Shown here one piece after another: positions 1-37,462 of a DNA stretch of 37,462 nt. The notes under the pieces were generated by a model. It did not search any database. It saw only the letters and a list, made by a program, of their open reading frames with translations, and was not told the DNA's origin. The translations under genes were made by a program, and so were the position numbers. Where the stretch lies: IMG/VR virus record IMGVR_UViG_2778261530_000007. One strand, written 5' to 3'. The DNA is from a virus (taxonomy: Duplodnaviria; Heunggongvirae; Uroviricota; Caudoviricetes). The first letter of the stretch is position 1. Every line of letters begins with the position of its first letter.

Positions 1-1008
1 CTAATCGATGGACAGTTTATGGACACTTTCAGCCAGCGGATTAAAGTTGATCGCGTCCTGTAAAAAGTCCGGCGAAAAATGAGCGTACGTCATTGTTTGC
101 TGAATCGTTGCGTGCCCCAGGATTCGTTGCAACGTAACAATATTTCCGCCATTCATCATAAAGTGTGTGGCAAATGTATGACGCATGACATGCGTAGCCT
201 GCCCCTTCGGCAAATCCGGTTTCACCTCCTGAAGAATCTCCCGGAACTTCAGATAATCAACCTGATACAATAACCCCGTTCGACGGGTTTTAATCAGAGG
301 CACGACCGAATCCGCCACAGGAACCGAACGGGATTTTCCGTTTTTGGTGTTAAAGAACGTCACCCGGTTGCCAACGATATGCTCTCCACGTAGTTCCGAT
401 GCTTCACTCCATCGGGCACCAGTAGAAAGACACAGAATGGCAACACGACGCGCATCACCCTCCAGTCGCTCAAGAAGCCGTTCAATCTCATCATCAGAAA
501 GAAAGGCCATCTCTGTGTTCTGAACTTTCAGTTTTCGTATACCGCGTACAGGGTTCGCGTTGTGAAAGACCTCAGCTTCAATCAGCACCGTGAACATGGT
601 AGACAGTACGCATAAGTCACGATTAATACTGGACGGCATTAATCCGGCCTGTAATTTCTCTGACCGATATTCAAGCATAAATTTTCGCGTCATCTGACTG
701 GCGCGAGGATCTCCCATTTCACGAACAACCTTCCCTAGCCTAACCCTGTAGCTATCCCCGTAAGCCTGATTACGCCCATCAAGCATCCACCACGCATCAA
801 GCAGCTCTGATAATCGCCGCTGATCAGCTGGCTTAGCCTGCCATGGCTTGTCATGAAAGTTCTGTAACACATACTTCTCAAACTCCTGAGCCTTTGATTT
901 CAGGGCAAAGATTTTTCGAATCCGCTTTCCTTCCGCCCCCTGCGGTCTGACATCGACCTGATAACGTCCGTCTTTGAGTTGCTTAATCGACATGATTAGC
1001 CCCTCCAA
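1..1008 (-). CDS. int: Phage tyrosine integrase (P2 Int family); true start may be the internal Met at 993
   Basis: Translation aligns along its length with P2 Int as recalled (MSIKQLKDGRY..., LSTGARW, RHTFATHF, TLQRILGH, TMTYAHF); stop codon is at window positions 1-3. Confidence 0.93.
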   Translation of the reverse strand: MEGLIMSIKQLKDGRYQVDVRPQGAEGKRIRKIFALKSKAQEFEKYVLQNFHDKPWQAKPADQRRLSELLDAWWMLDGRNQAYGDSYRVRLGKVVREMGDPRASQMTRKFMLEYRSEKLQAGLMPSSINRDLCVLSTMFTVLIEAEVFHNANPVRGIRKLKVQNTEMAFLSDDEIERLLERLEGDARRVAILCLSTGARWSEASELRGEHIVGNRVTFFNTKNGKSRSVPVADSVVPLIKTRRTGLLYQVDYLKFREILQEVKPDLPKGQATHVMRHTFATHFMMNGGNIVTLQRILGHATIQQTMTYAHFSPDFLQDAINFNPLAESVHKLSID

Positions 1009-1062
1009 CGGATAAATTAACTAAACACTCCTTGCGATATGTAATTCGCTCAATGTGTAGAG

Positions 1063-1404
1063 TCAGCCAACATTGCGGCCTGATCGGGGTGATTTTTGGG
1101 TAATACCGATTGAAACCTGATCGCCCTCCGACTGAATAGAGCCATCAAGAGAGAGAGCCGGGGCAACCTGCCCGGCAGCGGGAAATGTTTTGTCGTGAAG
1201 TATCCACATAGTGTATTTTTCGAATCGCTCGACTTGGATTACTTTTTCTACAACCTCAATTCGCGCAGGTTTATATCCAGACTCATAATTCCCTATAGTC
1301 CCTACAGAAACCCCCGTTACTTGCGAAAACTGAGATTGTGTAAGTTTTTCTGCATTTCTGATCGCCTTTAGTTTTTTGGCGTAATCTCTTGACATGTTCA
1401 CCAT
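1063..1404 (-). CDS. Immunity repressor, HTH XRE/Cro-CI type (P2 C / 186 CI functional analogue)
   Basis: HTH motif LTQSQFSQVTGVSVGTIGNYESG; sits between int and a divergently transcribed cox-like gene; GAGG ribosome-binding site upstream of ATG at 1404. Confidence 0.75.
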   Translation of the reverse strand: MVNMSRDYAKKLKAIRNAEKLTQSQFSQVTGVSVGTIGNYESGYKPARIEVVEKVIQVERFEKYTMWILHDKTFPAAGQVAPALSLDGSIQSEGDQVSIGITQKSPRSGRNVG

Positions 1405-1427
1405 ACGATGAGTATCCTCTTTTCACT

Positions 1428-1445
1428 CTTCACCACATGGTGAAG
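1428..1445. promoter_or_regulatory. Perfect palindrome CTTCACCA-CA-TGGTGAAG in the repressor/cox switch region; candidate operator
   Basis: 8-bp inverted repeat with 2-bp spacer read directly from the sequence, lying in the 103-bp divergent intergenic region. Confidence 0.4.
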
Positions 1446-1507
1446 AAGACAAACCAAAACAAACCATCACAAGGCGCAACAAGCGCACCAACGCAAGAGG
1501 ATAACAA

Positions 1508-2029
1508 ATGCGGGACTTCATTGCCGATAAAGAGTTATCTGAACACCAACCACTTCAGGAAAGTGACACACTCAGCGGATCCATTGATGCCGCCAACGAC
1601 GACGAACACGAAGAAAACAAGAAAAAGCGTTCCTACAAAAAAGGAGCGACTTTACGGCTGGATGGTCCGATCGCCGGGCTTTGCTCTCTGGAAAAAGGCG
1701 CGGCATATATTGGGATAACAAAATCTGCACTGCGCGTAGCCATTCATCGCGGTCAAATGCCGGGACACAAGACGCGCACAAACCCGGAAGATGAAAACTC
1801 AGACGGAGTATGGTGGTTTAACGCCAAAGAGTGGGACAAGTTGGCTGATGAGCTACCAGAGCACGAGCCCCCAGAATGGCACAACTGGAAAAATTACTGG
1901 ACGTATAACCGCCAGAAAAGGAAGTTCTCTCCAGCTAATAAAGAAGACTGCCAGACCATTAACGGTAAGCGAGTTTATACAGGCAGAAGCTCAAAACTGG
2001 ACCAACTCAGAAACAACAGAGGCAACTAA
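1508..2029 (+). CDS. Cox/Apl-like HTH early protein (putative excisionase / switch regulator) with extended termini
   Basis: Central segment GAAYIGITKSALRVAIHRGQMPG resembles the Cox/AlpA-type HTH; first gene of the rightward early operon; strong RBS AAGAGGA 7 nt upstream of ATG. Confidence 0.5.
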   Translation: MRDFIADKELSEHQPLQESDTLSGSIDAANDDEHEENKKKRSYKKGATLRLDGPIAGLCSLEKGAAYIGITKSALRVAIHRGQMPGHKTRTNPEDENSDGVWWFNAKEWDKLADELPEHEPPEWHNWKNYWTYNRQKRKFSPANKEDCQTINGKRVYTGRSSKLDQLRNNRGN

Positions 2030-2033
2030 TCGT

Positions 2034-2456
2034 ATGAAAACAAACACGTCAGATTTCACAATAACTATTTCAAAAAATGACCAAGCATTAATTGATAACC
2101 TGAAATACCTTGCGGAAAAACATAATAACGGACGAATTGCAATTAATTTACGACACATCACAGGAGTAACAATTGTAACCAGTTACTGGCATCTATATCT
2201 AATCGCTAAATCAGTACTGAAAAACAAAGATTCTGTTGTCAATGGAAGAGATGTAGATACTCTTCCTGCACAAATCAAACCGATAGCCTATCAATTGCGT
2301 AATCGTTTTAAAAATGAAGGTGGGATTATATTTGACTTTCCCGCAGCTGTAGCCGTGAGCTTCTCTCGGGAGGATATACTTCACTCATTTCGTTTTGCTC
2401 TATCAGGTGACGAGACATTATGGCAGCTAGAAGATGCCGGGAGCAGCCCGGCATAA
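2034..2456 (+). CDS. Hypothetical protein (141 aa) in an AT-rich moron; start taken at the internal ATG with a GAGG RBS rather than the long ORF-track start
   Basis: Uninterrupted ORF; AT-rich composition unlike flanking phage genes; no recognisable motif. Confidence 0.5.
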   Translation: MKTNTSDFTITISKNDQALIDNLKYLAEKHNNGRIAINLRHITGVTIVTSYWHLYLIAKSVLKNKDSVVNGRDVDTLPAQIKPIAYQLRNRFKNEGGIIFDFPAAVAVSFSREDILHSFRFALSGDETLWQLEDAGSSPA

Positions 2457-2462
2457 ATCAAA

Positions 2463-2654
2463 TTAAAAATCAACCAGTTGTGTGACAGGTGGGTATTTAC
2501 GCTGAATTTTGTCAGTTACTAACGCCAGTAATATATGAATCTCTGCGTTTAATGCGTCTTTATCACCCGTCGTTTTTACCCTAGGAGGGTTAATGTTATC
2601 CAGAGCAGCACTAAGGTCACTCAACAAATTAACAACTTTTTTATCTTCTGACAT
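2463..2654 (-). CDS. Hypothetical small protein (63 aa), convergent with the preceding moron gene
   Basis: ORF with AGAGG RBS 7 nt upstream of ATG on the minus strand; same AT-rich block. Confidence 0.45.
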   Translation of the reverse strand: MSEDKKVVNLLSDLSAALDNINPPRVKTTGDKDALNAEIHILLALVTDKIQRKYPPVTQLVDF

Positions 2655-2789
2655 GAAAACCTCTAAACAATTTAATTAAACATAAGCCAGGACCTGAACC
2701 GGCCAGTCCAAGTCCTAGACACACAAAAAATACCACAAATCAATACAAGGTGACACGAGTACACCTTACCGAAGGTACAGAGTTTTAAT

Positions 2790-3140
2790 ATGAAACTACA
2801 GCGCAATTCTTCACAGCCGCGCTTCCGCAACGGTGCGGAACGCCACGCTAACCGTTTCGCTACCAGTGCATCACGTAGCAACTCTCGCTACAGCCTGAGC
2901 GAAACACACGCAACGCCGGATGGCTACCCAGTAAAACAAATCGGCGAGCATACCTGGCTGATTGAGAAAGCTGGAATTGTGGTCCACAAATGCCCACGCA
3001 ATCCGTTTACCGGAAACCGCATTTTTGCATTGAGCAACGGCGACAATCAGTTCGGACAGGATTTTACATTGTACGAAGCGCTACGCACGGTTGACCGCTT
3101 AATTGCAGGACGTAGTTTTCAGCATCCACGGGGGAATTAA
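2790..3140 (+). CDS. Hypothetical early protein (116 aa)
   Basis: ORF in the rightward early operon; no recognisable motif. Confidence 0.5.
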   Translation: MKLQRNSSQPRFRNGAERHANRFATSASRSNSRYSLSETHATPDGYPVKQIGEHTWLIEKAGIVVHKCPRNPFTGNRIFALSNGDNQFGQDFTLYEALRTVDRLIAGRSFQHPRGN

Positions 3141-3143
3141 CCA

Positions 3144-3398
3144 ATGGCAACAACGACAAAAAACATGGTAGAGATAGCCTCGGCCTACACTCTTATCATA
3201 CACCGACTCATAGATAATAATGCCCGTGATGCATTAAATACGGTGAAACCTTTATCGGAAGCAAAAAGCGATACTATCAGCGGATTAAAGTCACTACAGG
3301 AATGCGCACGCTATGCAGGTGATCACGCCGCATACATGGCCATTAACGATGCAATTGAGCGCATTGAATCAGGTAAACCATTAAGAGATTTTGTTTAA
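3144..3398 (+). CDS. Hypothetical early protein (84 aa)
   Basis: Tightly packed ORF starting 4 nt after the previous stop. Confidence 0.55.
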   Translation: MATTTKNMVEIASAYTLIIHRLIDNNARDALNTVKPLSEAKSDTISGLKSLQECARYAGDHAAYMAINDAIERIESGKPLRDFV

Positions 3399-3418
3399 TT
3401 GTTTTCCGGGAAAATGCA

Positions 3419-3661
3419 ATGGGCAAAGAATATAAAACTCTCATTAACAAAGCACTTGAGCGTTTTTATTTTCGCTTAAGTGCATCAGGCGCTCATGCTG
3501 AACGCGCAGCCCGTGACTCATTGACCAGGGCAATCCGGAGTCTGTATGACGTGGCTTTTTACGCTGATGATCTGGATGCACTTAACGAACTTTCCGAACT
3601 CGTCTGCGCCGCAGAATGCGGAGAACATATTGAACCGTATAAGCTGGGGAATATCGCATGA
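3419..3661 (+). CDS. Hypothetical early protein (80 aa)
   Basis: ORF in operon context. Confidence 0.55.
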   Translation: MGKEYKTLINKALERFYFRLSASGAHAERAARDSLTRAIRSLYDVAFYADDLDALNELSELVCAAECGEHIEPYKLGNIA

Positions 3662-3771
3662 GTATATTTATGTCATGGATTGTTCTGATTATTTCGGTGG
3701 CCTGCGCCATTGGGATTATGCGAATTATTCATTCAGTGAAAAAGATTGAACGTTTTTTCTCTGACGAATAA
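3658..3771 (+). CDS. Small hydrophobic protein (37 aa, MSIFMSWIVLIISVACAIGIMRIIHSVKKIERFFSDE), single predicted TM helix
   Basis: Hand-translated; ATGA overlap with the upstream stop; below the ORF-track length cut-off. Confidence 0.35.
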   Translation: MSIFMSWIVLIISVACAIGIMRIIHSVKKIERFFSDE

Positions 3772-3864
3772 CAGCACAAACAAAACACCAGATTAAACAA
3801 GAAAACGTGAAAACCATCCGCATTAGCGGAGGTATTCGCACACGTAAATAACGGAGATACAAAA

Positions 3865-4275
3865 ATGAACGCAAAAGAAAAAGGCATTGTAACTGCGCTA
3901 AAAAATATATCAGAGACCGCAAACAGAGCCATTCAGGATGCAACAAATGCAGGAATGATTGGGCCTGCCACCACGGCCATGATGATAACAAGAGTAACCG
4001 CCGAAGCAGCCGAAATCATCGAAAAACAGGATGCTGAACTAACGGTTCTCAAAACACAACCAACCACCAGACTGAATTTATCTGACATTGGACACCTTAT
4101 TCATATTATTGGCTCGGAGCTACAGCAATACATCATTATCGCCGAATTGCAGGACAAATACCTGATTACCCCTTACCCCGTAAGAGAGTCAGAAGTTCTG
4201 ACAAATCTCCGCCTGATAGAACGCACTCAGGCCGCATTCATTGATGGCACGCAACGTGCCGTATTTAACGCATAG
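3865..4275 (+). CDS. Hypothetical early protein (136 aa)
   Basis: ORF in operon context. Confidence 0.55.
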   Translation: MNAKEKGIVTALKNISETANRAIQDATNAGMIGPATTAMMITRVTAEAAEIIEKQDAELTVLKTQPTTRLNLSDIGHLIHIIGSELQQYIIIAELQDKYLITPYPVRESEVLTNLRLIERTQAAFIDGTQRAVFNA

Positions 4276-5051: not shown

Positions 5052-5255
5052 ATGAACAAAAAGACCTGGTTTCGCGCATACATGTGGGCGCTGGTATGCG
5101 TCCTCGTTTCTCTCATTCTGTATGCAGGACTACTCCCCCGAATGATTTCATCAGACAGCTCCTTCCTGGTATTGCTGGGCATTTTCATTGCCATGCTGTA
5201 CCCGGCAGGCGTTGTTCGCCTTTTCAGTAAGTACATCAAGGAAATCAAACAATGA
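5052..5255 (+). CDS. Small membrane protein with two predicted TM helices (67 aa); possible partner of the downstream SPFH protein
   Basis: Two hydrophobic stretches (WALVCVLVSLILYAGLL and FLVLLGIFIAMLYPAGVV); stop overlaps the SPFH gene start (ATGA). Confidence 0.55.
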   Translation: MNKKTWFRAYMWALVCVLVSLILYAGLLPRMISSDSSFLVLLGIFIAMLYPAGVVRLFSKYIKEIKQ

Positions 5256-6082
5256 AGAAATTCAAACTCTTTCAGATTATCCCTCTTTTTGCCGCCATCC
5301 TGCTGGTTGGTTGCGATCGTGTTGAGCCAGGTAATGTGGGCATCAAAGTCAACAAACTGGGCGACGATAAAGGCGTCGGTGAAGTGGTTGGTGTTGGCCG
5401 CTACTGGACTGGCTGGAATACCGAGGTTTACATCTTCCCGACCTTCAAACAAATGAAGACCTACGATGAGCCGTTCAGCTTCCAGATGAGTGACGGCACA
5501 ACCATCGGCTATCACATCGGTGTGGCCTACAAGGTTGATCCATCCAAAGTTACTACAGTGTTTCAGACCTACCGCAAAGGCGTGGATGACATTACCGACA
5601 CTGACCTGCGCCAGAAGATAGCCGACGCACTCAACCGACTGGCCAGCAAAATGACCACCGACAAATTTATCGACGGCGGGAAATCTGAACTACTGGATGC
5701 AGCTCTTAAAGACATTCAGGAGGAAATGACACCCATCGGTATTCAGGTAATGAGCCTCTCATATGTGGGTAAGCCGGAGTACCCGTCAACCGTTATCGAC
5801 AGCATTAATGCCAAAGTCACGGCAAACCAGAAAACCCTGCAACGCGAACAGGAAGTCAAGCAACGTGAAGCAGAAGCCAACATGTTGCGCGCAGAAGCTG
5901 CCGGACAGGCTGATGCGATTCGCACAAAAGCCCAGGCTGAAGCCGACGCTATTCGTTTACGCGGTGAAGCTCTGCGCCAGAATCCCGGCGTTATGGAGCT
6001 GGAAGCAATCAACAAATGGAACGGCACGCTGCCGCAATACATGACCAGCAATACCGCTGTTCCGTTTGTTCCGGTGAAGTAA
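5252..6082 (+). CDS. SPFH/band-7 (prohibitin/flotillin-like) domain lipoprotein
   Basis: Lipobox signal peptide ending LLVGC; SPFH-like core followed by an Ala/Glu/Gln-rich coiled-coil (EQEVKQREAEANMLRAEAAGQADAIRTKAQAEADAIRLRGEA). Confidence 0.8.
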   Translation: MKKFKLFQIIPLFAAILLVGCDRVEPGNVGIKVNKLGDDKGVGEVVGVGRYWTGWNTEVYIFPTFKQMKTYDEPFSFQMSDGTTIGYHIGVAYKVDPSKVTTVFQTYRKGVDDITDTDLRQKIADALNRLASKMTTDKFIDGGKSELLDAALKDIQEEMTPIGIQVMSLSYVGKPEYPSTVIDSINAKVTANQKTLQREQEVKQREAEANMLRAEAAGQADAIRTKAQAEADAIRLRGEALRQNPGVMELEAINKWNGTLPQYMTSNTAVPFVPVK

Positions 6083-6113: not shown

Positions 6114-6250
6114 AGCAGTATCAGGATTTTTTAGTATGCCGTTCTCACAAAAAAACCGCTTGCCATGCCGCAATCAGTCAGGTTACATTTCCGCTGCACC
6201 TCATAAAACGGGTGCCGGGATTGGAACCCCGCTGACAACCAAAGCGCACA

Positions 6251-6270
6251 ACCGCGCCAGCGGTTTTTTT
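6251..6270 (+). terminator. Rho-independent terminator (ACCGCGCCAGCGGT followed by T7)
   Basis: GC stem followed directly by TTTTTTT. Confidence 0.55.
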
Positions 6271-6449
6271 GTGCGTACCGTATCGCCACGTCGTTTTCGC
6301 ACACGAATTATGGTGGGGCGTATGGGGCCGACTTCGGTCGGGCCGGGTTCTTTGGTTGCCGGTAGTTCCAACCCTGTACGTCTCACCACCCCGAGCTTGG
6401 AACCTCTGGATGGTGAGTTTTCAAAACTTACAACCAAAGAGGCCACACC

Positions 6450-6680
6450 ATGGCAAACCGCAAACAACAGCGCACATACGCTGCGCGTCGTCACATCCAG
6501 ACTGAAATCAACCGCAGACTTTTCCGCGCATTCCGCGTCGCGCAAATCATGCACATCAATATGCTGCATGAGCGCAGCCACGCACTATCAAACATTTATT
6601 CCGCCTCTGTTTTCAGCTATCTGGCAGATGATCTGCGCGAGCTTCAGCAGCTCATCCAGCAGCAAAACAAACTCCATTAA
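6450..6680 (+). CDS. Hypothetical basic protein (76 aa)
   Basis: ORF with AAGAGG RBS about 8 nt upstream of ATG. Confidence 0.5.
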   Translation: MANRKQQRTYAARRHIQTEINRRLFRAFRVAQIMHINMLHERSHALSNIYSASVFSYLADDLRELQQLIQQQNKLH

Positions 6681-6752
6681 TTCCTGTTCCGGGCCTTTCC
6701 TGCACCTTGCGGCGGGAGGCCTTCGCACATCTGTAACAAGAGGATTGCCGCA

Positions 6753-7118
6753 ATGATTCTCGCCAACGACTTTCTTGAATACCTGCTCAACACAGAGCGT
6801 GATCTTGCCGCTCGCGTGCGTGATCGTTATGACATGTACCTGAAATCCCTGCCTGTACCGCAGCTCGCTGACGGAAAGATTGTTATTGATGGTCGCTACA
6901 TGATTGACAGCCACGAGGGAAATTACAGGCTTTACCGCATTGAAGGTGGCACCCCGTCCATTATTGGCATTTACCAGCGCCCATCCTCTGCAATCGTCGA
7001 TGTGATTGCCGACAGCATCCGCATCACACATCGCCATGCCGACACAGAAGACACCGTGCTGGAAATTCAGCGGCTGGCTACAGTCTGCCGCGACACCCTG
7101 TATGGCATGACGAAGTAA
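6753..7118 (+). CDS. Hypothetical protein immediately upstream of gene A (121 aa)
   Basis: ORF in operon context. Confidence 0.55.
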   Translation: MILANDFLEYLLNTERDLAARVRDRYDMYLKSLPVPQLADGKIVIDGRYMIDSHEGNYRLYRIEGGTPSIIGIYQRPSSAIVDVIADSIRITHRHADTEDTVLEIQRLATVCRDTLYGMTK

Positions 7119-7124
7119 ATCACT

Positions 7125-9947
7125 ATGACGGCAGAGTACATCAGGGACTGGCAACAACCGCGCCACGCAGTGGGGCGTGAAGGAACGGGGATCCCCGCTC
7201 CTGAATCCGCGCTTTCCTCCTGGCTGGATGCCTACCGGGCAGAGAACGAGCGCCGCCAGGAAATGGCTGATGCGGCGTTCTCCGCCACGCCGCTGGGCAA
7301 CCTGATTAATAAAAACCTGGACGCACAGGAAAAACAGGACAAAACCATCACACTGGCAGGAGACGCCAGAAAACAGGCACGCGGCGCGGTGGATGAAGCC
7401 ATGGCCTCGCTGCGCCTGCTGCCGTCCTATCTGCGCGATCCGCTTATTCGCCACCTCTCCTTCCTGCGCAAAAAACAGGAAGCCGATCGCCGGAAAGGCA
7501 AAAAGAGCTGGCAGGCGGAACGCTATGCACGCGGAACCCTGCGCAAAATATTCGAACGTCTGGATCGCACTGACGGACACTGGCTGACACCGGGTTATCG
7601 CTCCCTTGCCGGACGCGAACGCCTGGACGATTTGCTTTACCTGCCGCAGCTCAACAAACACCAGATACAGACGCTGGCCACCATGACGGCGGCGATGTTC
7701 AGCAGCACCTTCGAAAAACTCTGCGATGGCTTTGGCGCGACCGATGGCGAACTGACCATGGATGTAACGCTGAAGGCGTATCAGATGCTGGCCCGCATGG
7801 CGTTACACCTGCACATCATGCCTCCACATTATGACGCACTGACAACAGATAAAGACCGGAGGAACGAACCGGACACGGAGCTGCTGCCGGGCGCAATCCT
7901 TCGCCTGACCTGTGCGGAATGGTGGAAACGCAAACTGTGGCTGTTACGTTGCGAGTGGAGAGAAGAACAACTCCGCGCCGCCTGTCTGGTTTCCAGAAAA
8001 ACATCACCCTATCTGAGCCAGGACGCGTTAAGCGAGTTTCGCGCACAGCGCGAGAAAACACGCGATTTCCTGAAAAGTTTCATGCTGGAAAACGAAGACG
8101 GGTTCACGATTGATCTCGAGACAGTGTATTACGCGGGAGTAAGTAACCCGGTTCACCGTAAGGCAGAAATGATGGCCACCATGAAGGGGCTGGAACTTCT
8201 GGCCGAAGCCCGTGGCGACAAAGCGGTGTTTCTGACTGTCACCTGCCCGTCAAAATACCACGCCACAACAGAGAACGGTCATCCGAATCCCAGATGGAAC
8301 GGGGCCACCATGCGCGACTCCAGCGATTACCTGGTTAACACGTTTTTTGCAGCGGTCCGCAAGAAACTGAACCGCGATGGCCTGCGCTGGTATGGCATCC
8401 GCACGGTGGAGCCTCACCATGACGGCACCGTGCACTGGCATATGATGGTCTTTGCTCATCCGGAAGAAATCGACAGCATTGTGGCCATCACCCGCGATAT
8501 TGCCATTCAGGAAGACCGCCACGAGCTGGGCGATGACATAACTCCGCGTTTTAAGGCGGAGTACGTAGACGGCTCAAAAGGCACACCAACCAGCTATATC
8601 GCGACCTACATCGGAAAAAACCTGGACAGCCGCGCCGTGGATGGCATCGACCCGAAAACGGGCAAGCCACGCGTTGACCACGAAACCGGAAAATCAATGG
8701 CAGAGAGCGTGGAACGCGCCATCGGCTGGGCGCGCCTTCACCGGGTCCGCCAGTTCCAGTTCTTTGGTATCCCCTCCCGTCAGGTGTGGCGTGAACTGCG
8801 TCGCCTTGCCAGCCAGATGGCACGCAACCCGGAAGGCCCGCAACGGCTGAAGGATGACGCAATGGACTCGGTTCTTGCTGCCGCTGATGCCGGATGTTTT
8901 GCCACCTACATAGAGAAACAGGGCGGCGTACTTGTTCCACGCAAAGACTACCTGATTCGCACCGCCTACGACCTCGCAGATGAGCTGAACGATTACGGCG
9001 AACAGAGCGTACAGATTTACGGGATCTGGTCACCACTCATCGGGGAATCCTCCCGTGTGTGCACGCATCCGGATAACTGGAAGCTGGTAAGACGTAAACC
9101 AGAACCGGAAGACAACGCCCACGAAAATGGTTTTGACCTTCAGGGCGGCCCTGCCGCCCCTTGGACTCGTGGCAATAACTGTCCCCGTGTACAGGAAACG
9201 GACAACAACGGGACAGAACAGCCGGAAGAACGGCCAGCACCGTGGCCGCAGCTCCCTGACGGCGTTGAAGTGAACGAATGGATGCGCTCACTGAAACGGC
9301 ACGAACGCCGGGCGCTGATGCGTTCGCTTCGTGACAAACAGGCAAAAAACAGCAGTGATGAAATGCAGAGCTGGACACAGAGCCGCAAACAGCAGCGGCC
9401 TTTGCCTGATAACCACGAATTACTCGCTAAAGAATGGCGGGAGTCTGCTGAATCTCTCGGCCTGCATATCGGTGAACAACAGATGCAGCACCTGTTACGG
9501 GGCGGCAGTCTGTACGTTGACGGCAGCATCATTGCACCGCAGGGATTTGAAATTGTACGCAAACCGGATACCCGCCCGGACAGCCGAATCACGCAGCTCT
9601 GGCAGCGCCTGAGCCGTAATCATGGCGTAAGCAGCACGGAGATCCGCCATAACCCGGTCGCCAGCTATCTGGCACAGCTGGGGGCATCAGACCCTGAAGC
9701 CGCCGCACGCCTGGCATCCACACTTCAGCAGGACCAGAACACCATGAAAACACCCGTTACCGTGCTTTCTGACATGCTGCGCGCCATCCGCGACGCAGAG
9801 CACGCACAGAGAATCAGTGAAACCACTGAACGCGCCAGCCGCAAAGCAGACCTGCTGCGGGGTGGCCTGACCAGTGGAAACAAAAAACAGACAGAAACGG
9901 GACTCACGAATCCCGTAAATGAGCAAAAAACGTGCCGCGATATATGA
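7125..9947 (+). CDS. A: Replication initiation endonuclease (P2 gpA family, rolling-circle nickase); 940 aa with a long C-terminal extension
   Basis: HUH-type metal motif (TVHWHMMVF) and paired-tyrosine active-site motif (YIATYIGKN); position after the early genes. Confidence 0.9.
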   Translation: MTAEYIRDWQQPRHAVGREGTGIPAPESALSSWLDAYRAENERRQEMADAAFSATPLGNLINKNLDAQEKQDKTITLAGDARKQARGAVDEAMASLRLLPSYLRDPLIRHLSFLRKKQEADRRKGKKSWQAERYARGTLRKIFERLDRTDGHWLTPGYRSLAGRERLDDLLYLPQLNKHQIQTLATMTAAMFSSTFEKLCDGFGATDGELTMDVTLKAYQMLARMALHLHIMPPHYDALTTDKDRRNEPDTELLPGAILRLTCAEWWKRKLWLLRCEWREEQLRAACLVSRKTSPYLSQDALSEFRAQREKTRDFLKSFMLENEDGFTIDLETVYYAGVSNPVHRKAEMMATMKGLELLAEARGDKAVFLTVTCPSKYHATTENGHPNPRWNGATMRDSSDYLVNTFFAAVRKKLNRDGLRWYGIRTVEPHHDGTVHWHMMVFAHPEEIDSIVAITRDIAIQEDRHELGDDITPRFKAEYVDGSKGTPTSYIATYIGKNLDSRAVDGIDPKTGKPRVDHETGKSMAESVERAIGWARLHRVRQFQFFGIPSRQVWRELRRLASQMARNPEGPQRLKDDAMDSVLAAADAGCFATYIEKQGGVLVPRKDYLIRTAYDLADELNDYGEQSVQIYGIWSPLIGESSRVCTHPDNWKLVRRKPEPEDNAHENGFDLQGGPAAPWTRGNNCPRVQETDNNGTEQPEERPAPWPQLPDGVEVNEWMRSLKRHERRALMRSLRDKQAKNSSDEMQSWTQSRKQQRPLPDNHELLAKEWRESAESLGLHIGEQQMQHLLRGGSLYVDGSIIAPQGFEIVRKPDTRPDSRITQLWQRLSRNHGVSSTEIRHNPVASYLAQLGASDPEAAARLASTLQQDQNTMKTPVTVLSDMLRAIRDAEHAQRISETTERASRKADLLRGGLTSGNKKQTETGLTNPVNEQKTCRDI

Positions 9948-9995
9948 AGCGCGCACAAAACAGGCAAAAGCGGGATTTAAAAATCCTGTAAACGA
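9899..9995. promoter_or_regulatory. Two copies of a 25-bp site CGGGA-N7-ATCC(C/T)G-TAAA(T/C)GA (9899..9923 and 9972..9996), each with an internal inverted repeat; candidate ParR-binding (parC-like) site or promoter operator for parM
   Basis: Read directly: CGGGACTCACGAATCCCGTAAATGA and CGGGATTTAAAAATCCTGTAAACGA, about 73 bp apart, immediately upstream of parM. Confidence 0.4.
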
Positions 9996-10023
9996 TTAAT
10001 TAATCAACATAAGGAAAAGCGAC

Positions 10024-10983
10024 ATGAAAATTTGTATCGACGACGGCTCCACCAACATCAAGCTGGCATGGACTGAGAACGGCGAACGCCGCAACGCCAT
10101 CAGCCCGAACAGCTTCAAGTCGGAATGGTCTGCGCCGTTCGGTGGCACGCAGCCCGCGAACTACATGCTTGATGGCGTGCGCTATGGTTTTGATCCGGTC
10201 AGCGATCGCTTTGTCCAGACGACCGACACGCAATACCAGTACAGCGATGTGAATGTCATTGCCATTCATCACGCGCTGGTCAAATCAGGCATCACGCCAC
10301 AGGAGGTGGATGTGGTTGTCACCCTGCCACTGAGCGAGTATTTCGACACAAACGCACAGCCGGACATAGCCAACATCAACCGCAAAAAAGCGAACGTTAT
10401 GCGCCCGGTGGAGTACCAGAACGGCGAAGCATTCACTATCCGTAACGTGCGGGTTATGCCTGAATCCATTCCGGCTGGCTTTAAGGCACTGGCTGACATG
10501 AGTCCGTTTGAATCCCTGCTGATTGTGGATTTGGGCGGAACCACGCTGGATGTGGCAAAGGTTCAGGGGCAACTGGCAGGTATCAGCCAGGTGTTTTGCG
10601 ATCCACACGTAGGCGTTTCTATGATGGCCGATGCCGTACTGTCGGTGATGGCCACTAACGGTATGCGCACCAGTCACCACATCGCCAATACCATTATCGA
10701 ACATCGCCATGATGAAGCCTGGCTGCGCCAGCACATCCACAATGACGCGCATTACGCCAGCCTGATGGCGGTTATTCGTGAAAAGGAAGAAACACTGAAA
10801 CAACGCGTGATCCGCGCACTGGCGGGTTTTTCGGGTTACGGGCGGGTGATGGTTGTCGGTGGCGGGGCGGAGATTGTGGCACCCGCTATCCGCGAAGCCT
10901 GCGGAGTTAATGCGACTTTCATCGCGGACGGGGTGCCACAGTTTGCTCTGGTTAATGGGCTGTACGCAATGGACAAGGAGTAA
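10024..10983 (+). CDS. parM: ParM/StbA-family actin-like segregation ATPase
   Basis: Strong similarity to plasmid R1 ParM as recalled (ICIDDGSTNIKLAW, ISPNSFK, YQYSDVNV, VMPESIPAG, DLGGTTLDV, GGGAEI, LVNGLY). Confidence 0.88.
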   Translation: MKICIDDGSTNIKLAWTENGERRNAISPNSFKSEWSAPFGGTQPANYMLDGVRYGFDPVSDRFVQTTDTQYQYSDVNVIAIHHALVKSGITPQEVDVVVTLPLSEYFDTNAQPDIANINRKKANVMRPVEYQNGEAFTIRNVRVMPESIPAGFKALADMSPFESLLIVDLGGTTLDVAKVQGQLAGISQVFCDPHVGVSMMADAVLSVMATNGMRTSHHIANTIIEHRHDEAWLRQHIHNDAHYASLMAVIREKEETLKQRVIRALAGFSGYGRVMVVGGGAEIVAPAIREACGVNATFIADGVPQFALVNGLYAMDKE

Positions 10984-10987
10984 ACCA

Positions 10988-11299
10988 ATGACGACACCAA
11001 CCAGACGGATAAGTTTCTATCTGAAGCCCGCCGCCGTCAAGAACGAAGGTGAAGCATGCGCCTGGCTGGACAGCCTTACACCAGAAGCGCGCAAAAGCGG
11101 CCAACGCGTGGCTTTTCTGGCCGGGCTGGCACTTCTGAAAATGAATCCGGCAGAGGCTTACCGACTGGCTGCATGGGCTGATGATGAAGCGTTATCAGTG
11201 ACACAAACCAGGACAGAACGCCCCGCGTCACAGCCAGTATCAACCGCACAGATAACCAGTCAGATGGCCGGAAATATCCGGGCGTTATTTCCCGAATAA
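10988..11299 (+). CDS. parR: ParR-like partition adaptor protein
   Basis: Immediately downstream of parM with AAGGAG RBS; motifs shared with R1 ParR as recalled (RRISFYLKP vs RRTIAFKLNP; FLAGLALL vs LTAGLALY; IRALFPE vs ILRSLFPKE). Confidence 0.7.
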   Translation: MTTPTRRISFYLKPAAVKNEGEACAWLDSLTPEARKSGQRVAFLAGLALLKMNPAEAYRLAAWADDEALSVTQTRTERPASQPVSTAQITSQMAGNIRALFPE

Positions 11300-11304
11300 C
11301 ACAA

Positions 11305-11328
11305 CATCAGGGCGCATCCGCCCTGATG
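11305..11328 (+). terminator. Perfect hairpin (10-bp stem CATCAGGGCG / CGCCCTGATG, 4-nt loop) between parR and the ZBD gene; terminator, attenuator or protein-binding palindrome
   Basis: Inverted repeat read from the sequence. Confidence 0.4.
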
Positions 11329-11362
11329 ACTTTAACCCGGGAACATAAACAAGGGGGACACA

Positions 11363-11698
11363 ATGCAACGCATTGACAGAGAAAAAGCGCAGCGACTGAT
11401 TGAGCGGATGGAAGCGCTGGCGAAAGAAGAAAATGTCAACATCCAAAAAATAGCTGAATGTGGCCAGATAGTTCTTCGTCGTGAAAAAGACCTCAAACAA
11501 CTGATGTCTGGCGAAACCAGCAAAACATGGACTTCAGGTGAGGAGACGATTTATTGCAGCTTCTGCAATAAATCCCAGTACGAAGTCACAAAGGTGATTG
11601 CCGGACCGTCTGTTTACATCTGCAATGAGTGCGTTGATTTGTGCAATGAAGTTATCAGGAGAGAAGTGACAGACCATGAAGAAAAAACGCATGAATGA
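11363..11698 (+). CDS. Small protein with a C-terminal ClpX-type C4 zinc-binding domain (ZBD) and a novel N-terminal helical region; lacks the AAA+ module
   Basis: C-terminus [39 protein letters not shown] closely matches the ClpX N-terminal zinc finger as recalled ([39 protein letters not shown]). Confidence 0.8.
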
Positions 11699-11864
11699 CG
11701 AATTTGACGGCTTTTAATTTTATCGGGGCGCACTGTCGCCCTGCATGGAGAAAAACAATAAAAAAGATGAATAACTGCTCATGTCAGACGCGCTGCGGGC
11801 AAGTCTGGCACCCTGCCCTGTCTCCGCAAAGGCTGTTGTCTTAACACGACAGAGTATGCCAGCA

Positions 11865-12272
11865 TTAAATATAATCTTCTTCGTAGTCGCTGATTAATTC
11901 ATTGCCATAATCAGACAGCAATTTCAAAGCAAAGGTAACTTCCTCAAGGGTAGCTATCCCCATTGCTGAAAACACCGTTAATTTAACCAGCAGCAGGGAG
12001 TTTGAAAGTTCGGAAGAGTTCATCATTAAAAATATTGATGCAGCCTGAAAAGCTGTGCGTTTATTCCCATCATGAAAGGCATGAGCCTTGGCTATACCAA
12101 TCAAATACATAGCAGCCAGAGCATGAATATCATCAACCCCTTCATAGTAGTGTAGTGTCCTGACGCGATTTAAAGCACCTTCAAGTAGCCCGTCATTGGC
12201 ATTTCCGCTCTGGGGTAAAGTTTCAGCATGGATACGTTCTACTTGTTCTTTTGACAAAAACACTATGTCCAT
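11865..12272 (-). CDS. doc: Doc (death-on-curing) Fic-fold toxin
   Basis: Fic/Doc signature HAFHDGNKRTA; start overlaps the stop of the upstream antitoxin gene (TGATG). Confidence 0.85.
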   Translation of the reverse strand: MDIVFLSKEQVERIHAETLPQSGNANDGLLEGALNRVRTLHYYEGVDDIHALAAMYLIGIAKAHAFHDGNKRTAFQAASIFLMMNSSELSNSLLLVKLTVFSAMGIATLEEVTFALKLLSDYGNELISDYEEDYI

Positions 12273-12628
12273 CAGTTATCCTCAAGCTTTTTAATGATAT
12301 CCGCATGTTTTTCTCTTGTACGCTTCATTGCATCTTCAAAAGACAATCCTTTTTTTCTCTGTGCGACAAGAGCTGGATGACGTTTTTCCAGATCTCTCAC
12401 TGCATTTATTAAGAGTGGTTGCTTCATTTTGTTTATTTGATCCCGCAGTTTTTTGGTTTTGCCAAGGACAGCCCGTATTTCAGGACTAAGATCAGAACCA
12501 GCAAGAACAACATCCTTCCCTCCCTGCGCCGTGATAACGACACTGCCACCGGAAGAAAGGTAATCCAGAATTTCACTCAGGTTCTCACGAAATTCATCAT
12601 CAGTTACAGTTTTCATATTCATTTCCAT
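12272..12628 (-). CDS. phd: Putative Phd/YefM-type antitoxin with C-terminal extension, cognate to Doc
   Basis: Upstream of and translationally coupled to doc; N-terminal region resembles the Phd/YefM fold pattern (EFRENLSEILDYLSSGGSVVITAQGGKDVVL). Confidence 0.6.
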   Translation of the reverse strand: MEMNMKTVTDDEFRENLSEILDYLSSGGSVVITAQGGKDVVLAGSDLSPEIRAVLGKTKKLRDQINKMKQPLLINAVRDLEKRHPALVAQRKKGLSFEDAMKRTREKHADIIKKLEDN

Positions 12629-12702
12629 TATGCACGCCCATAACGTAAGTATAACGGCTTGTTGGGCAGTAATAACACCGCCATATTTTCATTTTATACA
12701 CC

Positions 12703-12799
12703 GCACAATAGTGCACAAATTTGCACAATTTTTTTGAACAACTTTTTACCCTTCCGGCCCGCGTGGCGACTGGATCCGTCAAGGATCCGTGCGTGCACA
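12703..12799. repeat. Direct repeats of TGCACAA at 10-bp phasing (12703..12728) with a further copy at 12793..12799, plus GGATCCGT-N3-GGATCCGT (12772..12790), in the non-coding region between phd and Q
   Basis: Read directly from the sequence; function unknown (operator, packaging or centromere-like site). Confidence 0.35.
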
Positions 12800-13103
12800 A
12801 AAAAACGCGCTTTTTCTGCGCGCAGGTGACGGGGGAACAGCCCGCGTTTCAGGGGGTAAATAGCATCCCCTGAACGATGTCGCAGCGACACAACAGAATG
12901 GCTGTATTTCTCACGCTGAGCGTGAAAAAGACGTGAGGGCTTTTGATTTGATGGGGTGAAAGGTAAGGCCGTCAAAATCGCACTGAGACGGCGAGAACAT
13001 GCAGTCAACGCGGTGGGATTGCGTAAGAGTCTGACTGTCGATGATGGCAATAAGCAGGAAAGCGTCGTGAAATTATCTGATTGATACAGGAGCTGGAGAG
13101 TCG

Positions 13104-13126
13104 GGGCATAAATTTTTTATGCCCCG
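13104..13126. other. Perfect 10-bp-stem hairpin GGGGCATAAA-TTT-TTTATGCCCC just downstream of Q on the minus strand
   Basis: Inverted repeat read from the sequence; may be the Q/P operon terminator or part of the packaging region. Confidence 0.35.
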
Positions 13127-13152
13127 GCGAAGCAGCAGACAAGCGAAGCGCG

Positions 13153-14199
13153 TCAGGATGTGGGCTGGGTGTCTAACAGTGCGTAAGGGTTAAAGCGGAT
13201 CACCTCTTCGCCAAGCCAGTCATTGATGTGCTTTATGGCCTCCATGACAGGCATCAGCTCGTTAATTGCGTAAACCCGCGCGGCCTTCTCCACATCGCCA
13301 AACGCACTTTTTTCGCCCGGCATCGCCCCCATCAGTTGCGGCGGAACGCGGTGCGCAGCCAGCACATCATCACGGGATGCCGCCTTAACATTCATGAACT
13401 CATCCTTTGCGGTGATCTGCTGGAACGGCAAAATTTGCACCCCCTCTTTGCCCCCGTTGGGCGCATGGATGAGCACGTTTTTAAACGCACCACCACCACG
13501 CGCACCCTGTAACGTTTCTTTCAGGGAGTCCATGCTTTCGCGGTTTACCTGCGCTGCACCGATGTAGATGATGCACCCGGCGTGGGATCCATTGTCGTAA
13601 TACAGTTTTCTGAACATGTCCGCCGAATGAGACAGGCTGGCCGAGAGTAATGCGCCAAGATATTCCGGCATGCCGTAAATTTCCTGGTTAATGTCCGGAT
13701 TCATCAGGTGGCACACTTTGCCAGGGCGAAACTGAAACGCGTCCTTGCCATCCTGCACATACCACCATGATTCAAGATCGCTTCCGCGTCGCATGTATTT
13801 CGCCAGTGCGTGCCGTAATTTAAGTGGTTCGCCGAGCATATTGCTCCGAAGCTCAAGGAATGCGTTACCGAACACAAACCAGTCCAGCGCCAGCGCCGAG
13901 AAATCCTGCCGGGAAAGCAGCGGGTGCGGGATGTAGCAACCGAGCAATACATTGCGCTTAAAGTAAAGCGCAGACTGATGCCAGGACGTTTGCCGGGCAG
14001 CTCTTGCCAGACCGTACCAGTCCACCGGGGTTTCATACCACCGCCCGTTATCAGCACAGTACATATTGTCCAGCAGGTCATGCCCGGTCAGGCGATAAGG
14101 ACCATCAAATGTGAATGCACTGAGCGATGATTCTTTCCTGAGCGCATCAGCGAGATCAATGCGTGAACTCATGCGCACTTTTTTATTTTTTCTGCTCAT
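13153..14199 (-). CDS. Q: Portal protein (P2 gpQ)
   Basis: Position and length match P2 Q; coupled to the terminase gene (stop/start overlap at 14199). Confidence 0.9.
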   Translation of the reverse strand: MSRKNKKVRMSSRIDLADALRKESSLSAFTFDGPYRLTGHDLLDNMYCADNGRWYETPVDWYGLARAARQTSWHQSALYFKRNVLLGCYIPHPLLSRQDFSALALDWFVFGNAFLELRSNMLGEPLKLRHALAKYMRRGSDLESWWYVQDGKDAFQFRPGKVCHLMNPDINQEIYGMPEYLGALLSASLSHSADMFRKLYYDNGSHAGCIIYIGAAQVNRESMDSLKETLQGARGGGAFKNVLIHAPNGGKEGVQILPFQQITAKDEFMNVKAASRDDVLAAHRVPPQLMGAMPGEKSAFGDVEKAARVYAINELMPVMEAIKHINDWLGEEVIRFNPYALLDTQPTS

Positions 14200-35275: not shown

Positions 35276-35536
35276 ATGTTCCGTTGTCCGCTTTGTGGCG
35301 CATCTGCCCGTATCCGCACCAGTCGTCCGGAAAATGATTCAAACACCGTGCGGCAAAAGTATTACCAGTGTAACAACCTGGAATGCGGCGTATGCTTCTC
35401 AACACTGGAAGCTTTCCATAAATTCACATCGAAACACGCCTCCGGCGTTCACTCTTCAGAAGGTATCCCGTGGCATGAGCTGCCAGCTTCGCACAGGGGA
35501 AACAATCAGATGAGCTTGCCTTTACCTCAGAATTAA
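35276..35536 (+). CDS. ogr: Ogr/Delta-family zinc-finger late-gene transcriptional activator
   Basis: MFRCPLCGASARIRTSR ... YYQCNNLECGVCF matches the Ogr C4 zinc-finger pattern. Confidence 0.85.
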   Translation: MFRCPLCGASARIRTSRPENDSNTVRQKYYQCNNLECGVCFSTLEAFHKFTSKHASGVHSSEGIPWHELPASHRGNNQMSLPLPQN

Positions 35537-35596: not shown

Positions 35597-35809
35597 ATGG
35601 TCGGAGGGAATACCCGAAGGCCGGATGTGGAAAGGCCCCGGAAAACATTTCTGTTTAACCGAGGCCCTGACCATACAACCTTCGCAAGTCGTAGGTTAGC
35701 GCCTCTCCAACAAAGGAGCAAGCGCTATGTCGCAAAAATCGCTTACGGCCATCACGTTCTGCGTGACGGCAATCCTCATCATCTGGATGCTGCACGGTTC
35801 GCTGTGTGA
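35597..35809 (+). CDS. mok: Mok-like overlapping reading frame of a hok/mok/sok-type locus
   Basis: 70-aa ORF overlapping hok in another frame, as in characterised hok/sok loci. Confidence 0.45.
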   Translation: MVGGNTRRPDVERPRKTFLFNRGPDHTTFASRRLAPLQQRSKRYVAKIAYGHHVLRDGNPHHLDAARFAV

Positions 35810-35867
35810 AATACGGATGAGCTTCTGGGGAGCGGAGTTTGCGGCGTTCTTACAGTGTAAGCAGTAA
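35727..35867 (+). CDS. hok: Hok/Gef-family type I toxin (46 aa membrane peptide)
   Basis: Hand-translated MSQKSLTAITFCVTAILIIWMLHGSLCEIRMSFWGAEFAAFLQCKQ: N-terminal TM helix then the family-typical LCEIR and AAF motifs; GGAG RBS. Confidence 0.75.
   Translation: MSQKSLTAITFCVTAILIIWMLHGSLCEIRMSFWGAEFAAFLQCKQ

Positions 35868-36169: not shown

Positions 36170-37462
<1,293 letters not shown>

Follow-up and report, generated by a model that had tools for sequence, protein, structure and literature searches.

Can a partition system and an addiction module that lie side by side in an integrated prophage be taken as a single maintenance system? The question is raised by a P2-like prophage sequence of 37,462 nucleotides (nt) from IMG/VR (record IMGVR_UViG_2778261530_000007), hereafter called the window. 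Between its replication gene A and its portal gene Q lie five genes: the actin-like partition pair parM and parR (together parMR), a gene for a free-standing ClpX zinc-binding domain (ZBD), and the toxin gene doc with the gene of a Phd-like antitoxin. A preliminary description of positions 10024-12628 presented them as a plasmid-style maintenance island, which would either allow the phage to persist as an episome or act as a new exclusion or abortive-infection system. We show here that the parMR, ZBD and Phd-like/Doc modules are distributed independently of each other. The interval is probably a composite of these three modules, not one system, within an integrated and inducible prophage of the P88 type, and our data do not support the existence of an undescribed island that would work coherently in maintenance or exclusion.

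Gene content of the interval

The gene parM (10024-10983, + strand) encodes an actin-like segregation ATPase of the StbA/ParM family with 319 amino acids (StbA_N, E 3.6e-82; ParM_N, E 1.8e-68). It aligns end to end, over residues 2-316, with the ParM of plasmid R1 (PDB 1mwk; 46% identity, E 1.7e-92). The preliminary description had let its reading depend on the ATPase motifs, and the alignment shows that those for phosphate-1, phosphate-2 and adenosine (DDGSTNIK, DLGGTTLD and GGGAE) are intact. The stop codon of parM is separated by 4 nt from parR (10988-11299, +), which encodes an adaptor of the Plasmid_stab_B/StbB family with 103 amino acids (PF10784, E 1.7e-24, profile positions 1-71 of 72). 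The third gene (11363-11698, +) is an accessory gene and encodes the free-standing ClpX ZBD protein, of 111 amino acids (zf-C4_ClpX, PF06689, E 3.1e-17, 62.6 bits for a cut-off of 27). On the other strand are doc (11865-12272, -), for a Fic-fold death-on-curing toxin of 135 amino acids (TIGR01550, DOC_P1 of NCBIfam, 53.6 for a cut-off of 38.65), and the gene of the Phd-like antitoxin (12272-12628, -), of 118 amino acids. The NCBI Prokaryotic Genome Annotation Pipeline (PGAP) names the latter Phd/YefM and places its start at 12616, which gives 114 amino acids. Profile searches, together with structure-sequence alignments of ParM, the ZBD protein, and Doc, agree with the assignments first proposed for all five genes, though the Phd-like protein stays just below the family cut-offs.

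The window is an Escherichia coli prophage of the P2 family, of the P88 type (genus Xuanwuvirus, Peduoviridae), and has the P2-type set of modules: Cox, GPA, portal, terminase, GPO scaffold, P2-family capsid, and Ogr. It starts with the integrase gene (1-1008) and ends with serS (36170-37462). The P2-like context, the location between A and Q, the integrase, and the adjoining serS were all correctly described at the outset. Within 9900-12700, the part from A through parM and parR to the ZBD gene has 97.8% nucleotide identity with phage P88, and the whole stretch is 100% identical to the chromosome of strain BCE049. PGAP annotates the latter copy as replication endonuclease, ParM, plasmid partitioning/stability protein, ClpX C4-type zinc finger protein, Doc-family toxin, Phd/YefM antitoxin, portal, and terminase.

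Distribution of the modules

We searched the modules separately in 5,426 complete genomes of E. coli, counting the gene A allele at a coverage of at least 80%. This allele is present in 1,319 genomes, parMR in 1,307, the ZBD gene in 112, Phd/Doc in 20, and the whole cassette in 18. Hence, parMR accompanies this gene A almost without exception. The 18 genomes with the whole cassette all have at least 98.3% identity and thus represent one prophage variant, not independent co-occurrences. The 80 IMG/VR loci with this ParM give a similarly nested picture, with ParR in 77, A in 74, the ZBD in 15, and Phd/Doc in 2, while 55 have none of the tested cargo genes. The gap between parR and the portal gene in these loci varies from 993 to 4,174 base pairs (bp) and takes many distinct lengths. 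In the sampled E. coli loci, A-parM-parR is constant and is followed by a pair of helix-turn-helix and PIN genes, by insertion sequences, by hypothetical genes, or by the ZBD gene with a gp20-like gene and XF1762.

Homology to most other P88-like loci ends at the end of parR and resumes around position 12700. The variable interval is therefore only the ~1.4 kb between ~11300 and ~12700. It starts with a G+C-rich hairpin right after parR (11305-11328), which lacks a T-run and is terminator-like on the - strand only; loci with other cargo have a different hairpin at this place. We also observed a deletion variant, in UPEC132 and strain 300444, which has lost parR and the ZBD gene but retains an intact Phd/Doc, and in which a parM truncated to 54 codons lies 20 nt away from the stop codon of doc. 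These two are the only truncated copies of parM that we have seen. The nested distribution, the partial variants, and the lower G+C content of the Phd/Doc region (~42-44%, versus ~55% in the phage backbone) show that the three modules are independent. On the first two grounds we rejected the idea of one co-travelling island: comparing the A-Q intervals does not bear out the proposal that the cassette is a unit.

This locus is the gene A-portal (tin/old) hotspot of P2-like phages studied by Rousset et al. 2022 (PMC9122126). These authors counted everything between gpA and gpQ as hotspot, as did the preliminary description, whereas we find that parMR belongs to the backbone of one lineage, together with this gene A allele, and that only ~1.4 kb is truly variable. 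We accordingly rejected parMR as mobile hotspot cargo, since it tracks the gene A allele (1,307 versus 1,319 genomes) and deeper P2-like lineages. Table S5 of the same study already lists the exact five-gene arrangement, with four identical protein accessions, and P88 has been annotated in this way since its deposition, so this gene combination had been described before. The study also reported that roughly one in four P2-like phages carries genes for a putative partition system, which may allow plasmid maintenance. The layout is thus already catalogued, the phage-plasmid idea is already in print, and this is not a new system.

The distribution also bears on the proposal of a single exclusion or abortive-infection system for which all five genes were recruited. 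Their position between A and the portal gene, in a documented anti-phage hotspot (PMC9122126), and the presence of a toxin fit this proposal, and the Doc/Fic domain weakly matches the PADLOC candidate families PDC-S23 and PDC-M59B. These weak Fic-domain matches of Doc are the only ones in PADLOC-DB v2, which has no match for ParM, ParR, the ZBD protein, or the Phd-like protein. As PADLOC gave nothing useful, we rejected membership in a defence system. The modules moreover occur in every partial combination, parMR tracks the backbone and not the cargo, and the 18 genomes with the complete set represent a single near-identical prophage variant. Nothing in these data points to an exclusion system, which is already contradicted by the distribution and which we find extremely improbable.

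A predicted partition system as old backbone of P2-like phages

Gene A (7125-9947, +) encodes a rolling-circle initiator of 940 amino acids (PF05840, E 3e-131), the 'replication endonuclease' of PGAP, and its stop codon lies 76 nt upstream of parM, on the same strand. Terminator and promoter scans found neither a + strand terminator nor a consensus promoter between the two genes. In gene A, the GPA domain covers residues 179-503 only, leaving a C-terminal extension of ~440 residues that has no match in Pfam.

The list of homologues of the phage ParM shows a gap between the P88-type proteins of E. coli (91-99% identity) and the next relatives, and we examined the genomic context of eight more distant ones. 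The four with 53-63% identity are all encoded after gene A and before the portal gene; their P2-like prophages, from Plesiomonas, Hafnia, Serratia, and Enterobacter, also carry an integrase or other P2 modules. All four with at most 52% identity are on plasmids or on a conjugative element. A neighbour-joining tree groups the ParMs with a phage context in one clade, without any verified plasmid protein but with a bootstrap of only 53/100. This suggests a branch of ParM that has so far been seen only in P2-like prophages of several genera. Within the P88 lineage, the ratio of nonsynonymous to synonymous substitution rates (dN/dS) is 0.06-0.22 for parM and 0.08-0.28 for parR, which indicates that parM is under purifying selection. 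Judging from these comparisons, parMR is an old and fixed part of the backbone of the P88-like lineage and of a wider set of P2-like phages. The preliminary description had considered that its genes might turn out to be ordinary conserved P2 core genes: parMR is indeed core to the P88 lineage, but it is not core to P2 itself.

These data leave little room for parMR being a selfish or competitive relic, i.e., a captured plasmid cassette with no role in the phage or one that destabilises resident ParMRC plasmids by incompatibility. Its family is typical of plasmids, and the phage ParM has 46-52% identity to those of R1, IncL/M, and other plasmids. Yet, the dN/dS of parM is low, the genes keep the same position after gene A across five genera while their ParMs have diverged to 53-63% identity, and only the two truncated copies mentioned above were seen. 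Since the boxes described below differ in sequence from the plasmid iterons that we examined, cross-incompatibility is unlikely. We regard the relic as very improbable.

The ParR proteins have conserved ends, RRISFYLKP at the N-terminus and NIRALFPE at the C-terminus, and a middle that varies among alleles. The C-terminal motif, N(I/V)xxLFP(D/E), is also present in the ParR of IncL/M plasmids. When the window was compared with three other loci, at least three parR alleles could be distinguished; they have in common the first 14-17 residues (MTTPTRRISFYLKP) and the C-terminal NIxxLFPE and diverge strongly in the middle. Homology detected by megablast ends at window position 11042 in about half of the E. 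coli copies of parR, with unchanged boxes upstream.

Paired boxes upstream of parM

The paired palindromic sites reported upstream of parM are real. The region 9881-9995 contains two direct repeats of 42 nt (9881-9922 and 9954-9995), each with one 20-bp palindromic box: box 1, ACGGGACTCACGAATCCCGT, at 9897-9916, and box 2, GCGGGATTTAAAAATCCTGT, at 9970-9989, 73 nt apart. Their consensus is ACGGGATT-N4-AATCCCGT, a pattern with two matches in the window for 0.09 expected by chance. Box 1 lies within the 3' end of gene A, in its last codons. We consider this region a candidate ParR operator or minimal centromere (parC).

The boxes were found in all 78 IMG/VR P88-like loci (78/78). In the P2-like prophages of Plesiomonas and Hafnia, GGG...CCC palindromes lie 72-73 nt apart just upstream of parM despite diverged flanks, and an ATTAAT element after the second box is likewise kept. 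The Serratia and Enterobacter lineages have another ParR N-terminus (RKISFYLKPAHSRAD) and a different 20-nt inverted repeat. Diverged lineages thus keep the spacing of the boxes, and where the N-terminus of ParR is different, so is the upstream repeat, which supports the boxes as candidate sites of ParR. They may be an operator or a working centromere.

The arrangement resembles the ParMRC (StbA/StbB) systems of plasmids R1 and NR1 in the actin-fold ATPase with all its motifs, in the Plasmid_stab_B adaptor encoded directly downstream, and in the repeated candidate cis sites just upstream of parM that overlap the likely promoter region. It differs in the identity of ParM (46%) and in its carrier, an integrating myovirus with rolling-circle replication, where it lies right after gene A. 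Also, the two 20-bp palindromes 73 bp apart contrast with the arrays of short direct iterons in the plasmid relatives that we examined, IncL/M pKPN-068 and phage-plasmid D6.

A phage-encoded ClpX zinc-binding domain

Residues 57-104 of the ZBD protein are ~77-80% identical to the ZBD of E. coli ClpX (PDB 1ovx/2ds5, E 2e-19). Its cysteines C65, C68, C87, and C90 are invariant in the family alignment and make a complete CxxC...CxxC zinc site. In the AlphaFold model (predicted local distance difference test, pLDDT, 78.9), a flexible linker joins an N-terminal helical hairpin (residues 6-48) to the C4 zinc-binding domain (~60-104). The latter superimposes on 2ds5 with a root-mean-square deviation of 0.7 A (0.6-0.8 A for the solved ClpX ZBDs overall) and also matches the complex of the ZBD with the XB peptide (2ds8). 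Foldseek searches with the model gave matches to the ZBD part only and none to the hairpin. The phage protein is therefore like the N-terminal ZBD of E. coli ClpX (1ovx, 2ds5-2ds8) in sequence (over ~45 residues), in the four cysteine ligands, and in predicted fold, but it lacks the AAA+ module and adds a phage-specific N-terminal helical hairpin of ~50 residues. The protein belongs to PHROG 6797 (function unknown). Unlike ClpX of E. coli, its full-length family is narrow and confined to prophages of Escherichia (E. coli, E. albertii) and Salmonella. Our literature search on free ClpX ZBD proteins encoded by phages found nothing relevant.

A gp20-like gene of ~104-112 amino acids, which is absent in the window, overlaps the ZBD gene of P88 and UTI89 by 4 nt and is translationally coupled to it. 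Here, an open reading frame (ORF) of 49 codons (11690-11844, +), with no match in Pfam, overlaps the stop codon of the ZBD gene and seems to be a remnant of the junction. The segment 11690-11830 recurs in 7 other loci. The gp20-like gene is present in 10 of the 15 ZBD-bearing loci of IMG/VR, and it occurs without the ZBD gene in pZ1323PEC0009-2, a circular record discussed below. The two genes may form a unit.

The Phd-like/Doc pair

The catalytic loop of Doc, HAFHDGNKRTA, aligns with HIFNDANKRTA of P1 Doc, and the HxFxDGNKR motif is intact. The pair resembles Phd/Doc of P1 in the Fic fold and the HxFx(D/N)(A/G)NKR motif of the toxin (E 6e-13 to PDB 3k33) and in having the antitoxin gene upstream and overlapping: here, the stop codon of the phd-like gene and the start of doc overlap by 1 nt. 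It differs in its antitoxin of 118 amino acids, whose similarity to Phd, in the N-terminal part, is weak and below the thresholds (29.2 bits for a cut-off of 29.8 in Pfam, and 16.6 for 20.8 with TIGR01552). The antitoxin matched no solved structure.

Another difference from P1 is that the pair lies in integrated P2-like prophages, beside the portal gene, and recurs there across genera. Homologues of Doc are widespread in Enterobacterales. Those with 81-88% identity adjoin the portal gene, together with the same 118-amino acid partner, in P2-like prophages of Citrobacter and Serratia that carry genes for a Dam methyltransferase, DUF7415, or HicAB instead of parMR and the ZBD gene.

The neighbourhood of the ZBD gene and Phd/Doc invites the hypothesis that they are coupled. 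The mimic of the ClpX N-domain would slow or redirect the degradation of the Phd-like antitoxin by ClpXP, and the early operon would control the release of Doc. P1 Phd, as Lehnherr and Yarmolinsky are said to have reported in 1995, is a substrate degraded by ClpXP. The resemblance of the phage ZBD to that of the host, in sequence and predicted fold, is in line with the hypothesis, as is the position of the ZBD gene directly upstream in 18 of the 20 E. coli genomes with Phd/Doc. However, these 18 are one clonal variant. Of the 112 genomes with the ZBD gene, 94 lack Phd/Doc and usually have the gp20-like partner, and Phd/Doc occurs without the ZBD gene in the E. coli deletion variants and in the prophages of Citrobacter and Serratia. 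Such a coupling is therefore decidedly unlikely.

Integrated prophage or phage-plasmid

Could the phage alternate between an integrated and a plasmid state? As a facultative phage-plasmid, it would use ParMRC, Phd/Doc, and a hok-like gene to keep its excised genome as a low-copy episome, e.g., in hosts lacking a free attB, an idea also proposed by Rousset et al. 2022 (PMC9122126). With both of its genes intact, the predicted partition system seems complete, the substitution rates indicate purifying selection, and there are two addiction-type modules. The second of these is an ORF of the Hok/Gef family, of 46 amino acids (35727-35867, +; PF01848, 29.9 bits for a cut-off of 22), a predicted type I toxin-antitoxin-like module. 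It lies near ogr (35276-35536), at the attR end, and BCE049 and pZ1323PEC0009-2 have a PGAP annotation of Hok/Gef at this same place. No Sok RNA was found with Rfam at the gathering threshold.

When compared with phage-plasmids of the P1, N15, or SSU5 type, the prophage has the partition and addiction genes, whereas we found neither extrachromosomal maintenance nor a plasmid-type replicon. Pfam scans of the left arm and PGAP revealed no Rep or iteron replicon in the window, only the initiator A (PF05840). Gene A lies in the early operon, which the immunity repressor should silence. Among the 1,455 occurrences of parMR in E. coli (1,307 genomes), 1,453 are chromosomal and 2 are on plasmids. P88 itself is an integrated, mitomycin-inducible prophage with attL and attR (PMC5285337). 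Finally, Phd/Doc is present in only ~1.5% of the parMR-bearing genomes and cannot be part of a general maintenance strategy.

Among 72,556 plasmids of PLSDB, a single phage-sized circular record is a P88-like genome. This E. coli 'plasmid', pZ1323PEC0009-2 (NZ_CP148288.1), is a circle of 34,461 bp in which a P88-like phage is contained whole, integrase, parMR, and hok included. Its gene table lacks several structural genes, and these gaps suggest many pseudogenes. Its type of int/C module is integrated in ~300 other genomes, by pdxB where the flank is visible. The record could represent an episome, or else the assembler may have captured an excised form during replication. We also noticed P88-type parMR, with 95-99% identity, in very large 'plasmid' records of PLSDB, e.g., NZ_CP110658.1 (Salmonella, 272 kb) and NZ_MK439959.1 (E. 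coli, 228 kb). Such records may come from megaplasmids with an integrated P88-like prophage or from misassigned contigs.

Overall, an episomal lifestyle, as first suggested for this element, is at best rare, and we consider the facultative phage-plasmid unlikely. A more elaborate version is quite unlikely. In it, the P2-like phages with phage-specific ParMRC would be facultative phage-plasmids, whose ParM filaments segregate the circles replicated by A for persistence or for establishment without integration, and in the present variant the ZBD protein would in addition tune the turnover of the Phd-like antitoxin by ClpXP. If true, this would be an integrating myovirus with a regulated, plasmid-style maintenance programme.

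How the modules may work

Under the composite of three modules in an integrated prophage, which we favour, parM, parR, and the two upstream boxes would make a type II (ParMRC-like) segregation cassette. It is probably expressed with the early/replication operon, because no terminator separates it from A, which precedes it on the same strand, and because it has no strong promoter of its own. The cassette would act on the extrachromosomal circular genome of the phage, either once the prophage is induced or between infection and integration. ParR would attach to the boxes, and filaments of ParM would shift or pull apart the circles that arise from A-dependent rolling-circle replication. Occasional plasmid-like carriage would be a by-product and not the normal state.

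We found no functional work on ParMR of P2-like phages in the literature. The closest precedent, and the best functional analogy, appears to be AlpA/AlpC/alpS of prophage CGP3 of Corynebacterium glutamicum, also an integrated prophage with genes for an actin-like protein and an adaptor. There, the co-transcribed adaptor binds sites upstream of its own operon, and the genes are induced early (PMC4446434). The two proteins connect the circular phage DNA to filaments, and both are needed for efficient replication of the excised prophage (PMC4446434). The analogy has its limits, since AlpC is a distant actin-like protein that does not belong to StbA/ParM, and the host phylum and the type of phage differ.

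The ZBD protein, a helical hairpin fused to what is nearly a copy of the N-domain of host ClpX, would be cargo in the first slot of the hotspot. It might compete or pair with the N-domain of ClpX and thereby alter how ClpXP handles ZBD-dependent substrates. The Phd-like/Doc pair would be an ordinary type II toxin-antitoxin moron in the portal-proximal slot, serving prophage addiction, abortive infection, or both. Its low G+C content, its opposite strand, and probably a promoter of its own suggest that it is expressed in the lysogen. The scan for consensus promoters found none for parM, the ZBD gene, or phd; the single strong match of the region (11846-11875, +) is antisense to doc, and the region has fewer matches than shuffled sequence. 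The timing of expression, the binding of ParR to the boxes, and the cellular roles of all modules are our inferences.

Several points weigh against this reading. In a cell close to lysis, it is not obvious what use a segregation machine with a strictly lytic role would have. The combination of a hok-like gene, Phd/Doc, and a partition system would suit an episome, and one complete P88-like genome was deposited as a 34.5-kb circular 'plasmid'. If P1 Phd is a substrate of ClpXP, the position of the ZBD gene beside Phd/Doc could be functional and not incidental. Concerning the boxes, their conservation within the P88 lineage does not exceed that of the flanks, and they are also terminator-like on the - strand in the terminator scan. 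Since there are only two of them, compared with the iteron arrays of the plasmid relatives, they may be just an operator.

Other features of the prophage

On the right of the variable interval, the portal-proximal conserved flank (12700-13152) precedes the portal gene Q (13153-14199, -), the right-hand backbone gene. The flank is presumed to be the cos region. A core sequence of P2 cos was not found in the window, so that cos is placed solely by the conserved flank from ~12700. The terminator scan revealed a terminator-like hairpin for the portal/terminase transcript at 12805-12823 (-).

The prophage of the window adjoins serS, whereas that of BCE049, with the 100%-identical cassette, lies between pdxB and flk. 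The immunity repressor genes of these two prophages also differ (196 versus 113 amino acids). Hence, the same cassette occurs in mosaic phages at different attachment sites.

The early region encodes a protein with an SPFH/Band 7 domain (5252-6082, +; PF01145, E 1.8e-30), whose counterpart in P88 is annotated 'lipoprotein/serine protease'. Rfam identified isrK (6196-6270, +; 69.5 bits) and a C4 antisense RNA (6306-6393, +; 84.4 bits) within or beside an ORF of the Ash family (6136-6756). Related prophages have an ash pseudogene and a gene for a 'derepression protein' in this region, which looks like an antisense control of the P1/P7 immI type inside a P2-like phage.

Biological meaning

Our analysis makes a modest addition to what was catalogued. 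It links parMR to one type of gene A, reveals what appears to be a phage-only branch of ParM and a conserved pair of candidate boxes, and identifies Phd/Doc as recurrent portal-proximal cargo. What is of interest is less the finding than the biology of parMR and of the ZBD protein. As recombineering works in P88 lysogens (PMC5285337), the questions on both are directly addressable. The ZBD protein is a plausible tool of the phage for manipulating host proteolysis. As for parMR, an actin-like segregation system seems to have been kept for long in an integrating lineage with rolling-circle replication that is present in about a quarter of the complete E. coli genomes, and the precedent of CGP3 suggests that it may have a role in organising the replication of phage DNA.

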